NCBI GenBank assembly: GCA_964016885.1
Contig: OZ024753.1
Coordinates: 42,780,001 to 42,844,000, forward strand
Length of the DNA stretch: 64,000 nucleotides
Reading direction: 5' to 3'
Source: Eledone cirrhosa
Taxonomy: Eukaryota
Position numbers and translations under genes: made by a program
Shown: positions 53,072-53,125 of the stretch, piece by piece
Position numbering within the stretch: the first letter of the stretch is position 1
Layout: every line of letters begins with the position of its first letter
The notes under the pieces: model-generated
Told to the model about the DNA's origin: nothing
The model's input: only the letters and a program-made list of their open reading frames with translations
Database searches by the model: none

Positions 53072-53125
53072 AAACTCAGCGAAAACGACACCTTTCTAAT
53101 GGACTCTTTTTTGGACGGAAACGTT
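53072..53125 (+). CDS. Candidate 54-nt cassette exon encoding (E)TQRKRHLSNGLFFGRKR
   Basis: A T-rich tract over 60 nt ends in ttttacag, and the donor is the consensus gtaagt. Length is a multiple of 3, phase 1-1, with no stop in the frame of the flanking exons. Confidence 0.55.

Follow-up and report, generated by a model that had tools for sequence, protein, structure and literature searches.

Several described systems each resemble, in one respect, the optional exon reported here. In the LAR-type (IIA) receptor phosphatases, the mini-exons meA to meD are short optional exons of the ectodomain, lying at or between domains, that add 3–16 residues, tune ligand binding, and have no convertase site described for them (PMC8711739, PMC12598525). 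Vertebrate receptor phosphatases are cut by furin in the membrane-proximal FN3 domain (PMC12067748, PMC8711739), where the furin step of PTPRK is also placed (PMC12067748). PAM1, a type I membrane protein, has a paired-basic linker whose cleavage is restricted to neurons and endocrine cells (PMC4609047), and teneurin, a transmembrane adhesion protein, has an exon-encoded peptide, TCAP, with a convertase-like site and a GKR amidation motif (PMC9108700); TCAP is terminal and found across animals, and its length is 40–41 residues (PMC3775549). Ectodomain mini-exons of phosphatases, furin cleavage of receptors, cell-type-specific cleavage of a linker (PAM1), and a transmembrane protein that harbors a peptide with an amidation motif (teneurin/TCAP) are each known singly. 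In PAM1 and in Kit ligand (exon 6), the linker site lies on an alternative exon, and its cleavage releases an N-terminal module from a membrane protein, which is likewise what we propose, conditionally, for the present case.

The exon in question is a 54-nt mini-exon of the octopod Eledone cirrhosa, found in a 64,000-nt stretch of genomic DNA (the window, to which positions below refer unless a contig is named). In comparison with the LAR-type mini-exons, it encodes 18 residues, two tribasic clusters among them, and in the one annotated isoform it stands in for an entire EGF exon, and its host has EGF and kringle domains, whereas the LAR-type phosphatases have three Ig domains. Its length also places it outside the definition of LAR-type microexons, which are shorter than 30 nt (PMC8711739). 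Unlike its host, PAM1 and Kit ligand, to which it is unrelated, have single sites and no enclosed Gly-ended peptide, and unlike TCAP, the peptide enclosed by the mini-exon is 8 residues long, internal, optional, fast-changing, and so far seen in two octopods only. In listings and open-access main texts, we found no report of a receptor phosphatase in which an optional exon takes the place of an EGF repeat and supplies a convertase site in duplicate, and no paper in the open-access main texts deals with this receptor or its mini-exon. Phosphatases go unmentioned in the main text of a 2026 preprint that treats tissue-specific splicing in O. bimaculoides among other species (10.64898/2026.09.05.749416), whose supplements may list the mini-exon. 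The mini-exon itself is already contained in a RefSeq model, whose name carries no comment on it.

A receptor phosphatase with an EGF-kringle tip

The kringle exon of the window (33645–33878, + strand, 234 nt), recognized by the PF00051 match on the orthologue, leads to a receptor-type tyrosine phosphatase of Octopus bimaculoides at 94% identity. Over the window and 100 kb on each side of it, 20 matched segments of this 3.0-Gb genome give 997 identities in 1,110 residues with O. sinensis isoform X1, and values for O. vulgaris and O. bimaculoides are similar; identity falls to 86% with Argonauta and to 75% with a protein of the cuttlefish cluster, while the three named Octopus species are 98.6–99.9% identical to one another over the whole protein, so that E. 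cirrhosa probably stands at some distance from that group. Segment by segment, identity to the orthologue is 82–100% in 19 of 20 and 62% in the one whose match runs into an intron. Besides the kringle, the window holds on the + strand the EGF1 exon, an 8-Cys repeat found by tblastn to Octopus proteins (23592–23750, 159 nt), and two exons matched by Octopus proteins, EGF2, the upstream neighbor of the mini-exon (37969–38106, 138 nt), and EGF3 (60159–60305, 147 nt), which is optional; downstream, the 100 kb fetched contain the transmembrane exon and the beginning of the PTP region, the remainder of which lies farther on. The domain order of this receptor of about 1,600 residues is EGF-kringle-EGF-EGF-Ig-FN3 repeats-TM-PTP-PTP, in which kringle (PF00051), FN3, and PTP (PF00102, twice) are Pfam matches on the orthologue and the EGF and Ig labels are our own assignment from Cys patterns. 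By its ectodomain, single transmembrane helix, and PTP domain(s), the host gene is a receptor-type protein tyrosine phosphatase.

NCBI labels the orthologues as type IIB phosphatases (PTPRK/M/T/U). The host resembles this type in its tandem PTP domains, its FN3 repeats, and a membrane-proximal FN3 domain of family PF23144 that contains R-X-K-R in 5 of 5 proteins scanned, as well as in the E. cirrhosa genome. It differs in its EGF-kringle-EGF tip and in the absence of a MAM domain from the 12 Pfam hits (P0014, P0012), which show a kringle instead, so that PTPRT, the name used in the database, labels the protein and does not make it a member of this type. The mini-exon would give this receptor a second, optional cut near its tip. 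The ectodomain is basic overall (13% K+R, pI 9.2), with 9 further KR or RR pairs.

Other features of the gene deserve mention in their own right. The kringle in a receptor phosphatase ectodomain (33645–33878) is shared with cuttlefish, other kringles in the genome are only 38% and 31% identical to it, and a search of open-access main texts gave no paper on it; a Tie-like lead from the ESM Atlas (0.84) fell below that tool's threshold and was set aside. The first exon of most Octopus isoforms has a match upstream of the window, at about G000:C13:42738900-42739050, and the alternative N-terminus of O. bimaculoides X4 and Argonauta, which is more hydrophobic, was not located within 264 kb. Four isoforms in two Octopus species reveal two adjoining optional 9-residue segments just inside the membrane, with exons downstream of the window near G000:C13:42899077 and 42936044, and in the cuttlefish cluster, an optional segment of 8 residues occupies the corresponding membrane-adjacent place. 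A run of 200 N (26588–26787) interrupts the first intron within the gene.

The mini-exon and its counterpart in Octopus sinensis

The mini-exon occupies positions 53072–53125 of the + strand. A T-rich, AG-free acceptor region (52956–53071; the AG-free zone measures 114 nt) ends in AG before it, and the donor GTAAGT (53126–53131) follows. Its phase 1 translation is TQRKRHLSNGLFFGRKR, in which two tribasic clusters enclose 8 residues plus Gly; phase 0, open as well, was dropped because the O. sinensis protein is read in phase 1, and a stop closes the third frame. All four flanking exons of the window and the next exon downstream are of phase 1-1, so inclusion or omission of the mini-exon leaves the reading frame intact. 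Scored leave-one-out with matrices derived from 20 of this gene's exons, the donor reaches 8.1, above 13 of the 20, and the acceptor, which is on the weak side, 5.1, above only 4 of the 20. The triplet TGC stands between the T-rich tract and the acceptor (within 53055–53071); TGC in this place is a mark of neural microexons, though a single triplet is weak evidence.

Within the 22-kb intron, the mini-exon is the sole open 1-1 candidate exon of 24–180 nt at both thresholds tried. A cassette of dibasic site, peptide, Gly, and dibasic site occurs in none of 26 opposite-strand decoys (264 kb, looser threshold) and in 0.034% of random 17-mers drawn with the composition of the ectodomain, and two tribasic runs occur in none of 888 ectodomain windows, figures that overstate the surprise since the pattern was picked post hoc. 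The peptide is single-copy: a protein search of the genome returns one match, the mini-exon itself, and a second match by DNA search covers only the T-rich flank and is no paralogue. Two sequencing runs of one sample have exon and intron in one contig with no differences over the exon and are uninformative on splicing. Long ORFs in 38107–64000 are simple or tandem repeats, save for the frames over the two exons, and an Rfam search gave no match. A bipartite nuclear signal, suggested by the spacing of the basic clusters, was rejected because the insert is extracellular.

That this segment, with its acceptor, its GTAAGT donor, and its phase 1-1, forms an exon had been proposed from the letters of the window before any comparison, and it is borne out by O. 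sinensis. Isoform X5 of that species (XP_036361239.1) has, at the same place and in the same frame, an insert of the same length, 18 residues, ending SQRKRHLLKGSFYGRRR, and lacks EGF3. This orthologous insert, above all, makes it very likely that the mini-exon is real, and because X5 splices it into the host protein, it also dispels the suspicion that the segment might belong to a separate nested gene or be a chance match. RefSeq isoform models rest on RNA-seq junctions. With its splice sites, its preserved frame, its position between domain-coding exons, and its presence in some isoforms and absence from others, the mini-exon has, on sequence, the properties of an alternative cassette exon.

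The orthologue cluster has 15 members, and 14 octopod proteins cover the junction: EGF3 is present in 11, 2 (O. sinensis X6 and O. bimaculoides X6) go straight to the Ig exon, which in E. cirrhosa lies at G000:C13:42848997, with neither insert nor EGF3, and 1 has the insert. EGF3 is skipped in all three of these last isoforms. The sequence-only reading had joined the mini-exon directly to EGF3, and this finds no support: none of the 14 octopod proteins, only one of which has the mini-exon, shows the junction to 60159, and in X5, the insert replaces EGF3; the two exons, 7 kb apart, would remain in frame if combined. The insert was seen in none of 6 O. bimaculoides isoforms, in neither the one O. 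vulgaris nor the one Argonauta protein, and in none of the 9 proteins of the cuttlefish cluster that cover the junction. Given its absence from most octopod isoforms and from the cuttlefish cluster, inclusion may be rare. Word-indexed searches of shorter and near-length proteins gave no third orthologue; a search of 1.84 billion representatives gave 7 hits (3 Ig-exon fragments and 4 unrelated), and the clusters of those hits contained none, all of these being weak blanks in libraries that collapse isoforms. A degenerate form of the mini-exon pattern had 0 matches in metagenome contigs, likewise a weak blank.

Conserved basic residues and the FFamide question

The mini-exon is known from two species, and between them, 11 of 17 residues are identical and 6 differ, while the other exons are about 90% identical. 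All 6 basic positions remain basic and the Gly is kept, so in one species, O. sinensis, the conservation whose absence would have refuted the sequence-only reading is there. Around site 1 (QRKR/HL), the two species have the same residues on either side of the cut, and in both clusters of both species the final Arg is preceded by a basic residue. The pattern of an amidated precursor (basic site, peptide, Gly, basic site) is present in both species, with the shared outline H-L-x-x-G-x-F-[FY]. Four of the 6 changes fall in the core peptide, which is identical at 4 of 8 positions and changed at 2 of its last 3 residues; across these two species, the presumptive mature peptide is not better kept than its surroundings, at 4/8 against 90% in other exons. 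The clustering of changes in the core is not significant by itself (P 0.25), and against a background of 7–12%, 4 differences among the 8 spacer residues have P 0.001–0.01.

Neutral evolution was simulated at four divergence levels (6,000 runs each), counting runs with 5–7 changes, with O. sinensis represented by its protein sequence. In these runs, the six basics were kept in 4–10%, the six basics plus Gly in 2–5%, and a minimal cassette survived in 6–14%; a hypergeometric count gives 0.04. This moderate evidence is suggestive of constraint on charge and on the predicted cut sites, and of little constraint on the core.

The enclosed peptide had been linked to the molluscan FFamide (SIFamide-type) family, and this link we reject. 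The FFamide of oyster and scallop is GMNPNMNSLFF (PMC4200219, PMC5996578). The likeness of the mini-exon consists of LFF before G and a basic site, in E. cirrhosa only; it lacks the NPNxNSLFF-amide core, sharing with it LFF alone and in one species, and its O. sinensis counterpart ends in GSFY. Nor is the host, with its roughly 1,600 residues, a small secreted precursor with a signal peptide. The genome instead has a separate, canonical FFamide precursor gene on another contig (G000:C8, about 41.64 Mb; L024:1340-1640), a small ORF whose N-terminus is hydrophobic and in which GLNPNVNSLFF is framed by GRR and GKR; the pattern search alone is at chance (1 hit against 2 and 3 in controls), and the claim rests on the precursor as read. 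This precursor also has a first Gly-ended peptide before RR and a two-Cys tail. Its FFamide is identical to the oyster peptide at 9 of 11 positions, so a true ligand has been kept far better, over a longer distance, than the core of the mini-exon.

A proposed splice-controlled cut and its alternatives

We put at even chances the proposal that a splice switch inserts a doubled convertase site into this receptor, likely freeing its EGF-kringle-EGF tip. The optional exon would add a short linker with two tribasic clusters between EGF2 and the remaining ectodomain, and a proprotein convertase would cut these clusters, freeing the tip and leaving a shortened receptor; a cut at site 1 alone would suffice. 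The slot would then have three states, EGF3, basic linker, or nothing, and splicing would decide whether the tip remains attached. Since the tip has 22 Cys (8 + 6 + 8), it is probably joined to the rest by no disulfide. Each of the two sites conforms to the general convertase rule K/R-Xn-K/R, and for PACE4, bare RR and KR are acceptable (PMC9296861). The furin motif R-X-K/R-R is present at neither, with Gln as the P4 residue of site 1 and Gly as that of site 2, and in a scan of the ectodomain of P0014, it occurs only at residues 398 and 798. Leu, which furin disfavors after a cut site, follows site 2 with either downstream exon. That the ectodomain becomes cleavable, as had been suggested, can fairly be inferred. 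A point against release is that the tip could stay bound non-covalently after cleavage, as the furin-cut E subunit of the LAR-type phosphatases does (PMC8711739). The basic character of the ectodomain as a whole, with its 9 further KR or RR pairs, and the absence of the mini-exon from most isoforms also weigh against the proposal.

If both clusters are cut, the 8-residue spacer would be excised much like a connecting peptide. Amidation in passing is possible, but the sequence of the spacer is not kept as a ligand's would be, and the short peptide is probably a by-product. An amidated product would require both cuts, trimming, and PAM, and for this reason, the splice-controlled cut with the spacer as connecting peptide is favored over a receptor that doubles as neuropeptide precursor, in which the isoform would be cut twice, EGF-kringle-EGF shed, and an 8-residue HLxxGxF[FY]-amide would signal through its own receptor, a fast-evolving octopod peptide born in a receptor gene. 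We consider that scenario improbable. The intact cassette and its outline in both species, its rarity by chance, the proposed precedent of teneurin/TCAP (PMC9108700), and the amidation of substrates by PAM even in CHO cells (PMC4609047) all speak for it, but a core kept at 4/8, when the FFamide of the same genome matches oyster at 9/11, speaks against it. The Gly adds little, since keeping it about halves the neutral probability, and Gly before a basic run is also found at the ordinary furin-type site of this receptor in Octopus; the Leu after site 2 counts against it as well, and the O. sinensis peptide is absent from papers, as far as their main texts go.

Alternatively, the insert may stay uncut and act as a splice-code element, a rigid EGF repeat being swapped for a short, flexible basic patch that would alter the length of the ectodomain or bind polyanions or a partner, as meA and meB do. 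Ligand-binding mini-exons are established in the superfamily (PMC8711739, PMC12598525), short segments of 9 and 18 residues close to the membrane are likewise optional in the host gene, neither site is R-X-K/R-R, and a retained basic charge suits binding as well as cutting. However, the clusters end basic-then-Arg in both species, the order that convertases need, and in a binding loop one would look for a better-kept core than 4/8; we consider this alternative unlikely, though more probable than the other two. Rather more doubtful is a minor, nearly neutral exon, weakly included and tolerated because the frame is kept, with the motif incidental. An identity of 11/17 would correspond to neutral drift at 0.15–0.25 substitutions per site, the acceptor is weaker than those of 16 of 20 exons, and the exon is annotated in 1 of 14 octopod proteins. 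Yet length, frame, and position are kept though other exons differ by 10%, 37–67% of neutral runs gain a stop, and among runs that stay open, 6 or fewer changes occur in 10% at 0.4 and 1% at 0.6 substitutions per site; the basic residues, moreover, are retained beyond expectation.

In receptor phosphatases, mini-exons change partners and a fixed furin site splits the ectodomain, and an optional exon that supplies a cut would combine both. If the splice-controlled cut is right, splicing decides whether the ligand-facing tip of the receptor remains attached, and the mini-exon makes a small, direct test possible in a cephalopod receptor that is unstudied and whose EGF-kringle ectodomain is unusual. 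Should an amidated peptide be made and prove active, it would illustrate one route by which new signaling peptides arise.

The surroundings of the mini-exon are rich in repeats. Very high-copy dispersed repeats lie just downstream of it (53580–54000 and 54420–54600), with a summed contig depth that reaches into the millions, tandem minisatellites with the appearance of long ORFs occur at 38330–38740, 42850–43200, and about 6700 and 48950, and a short repeated unit is found at both about 6.7 kb and 48.9 kb of the window.
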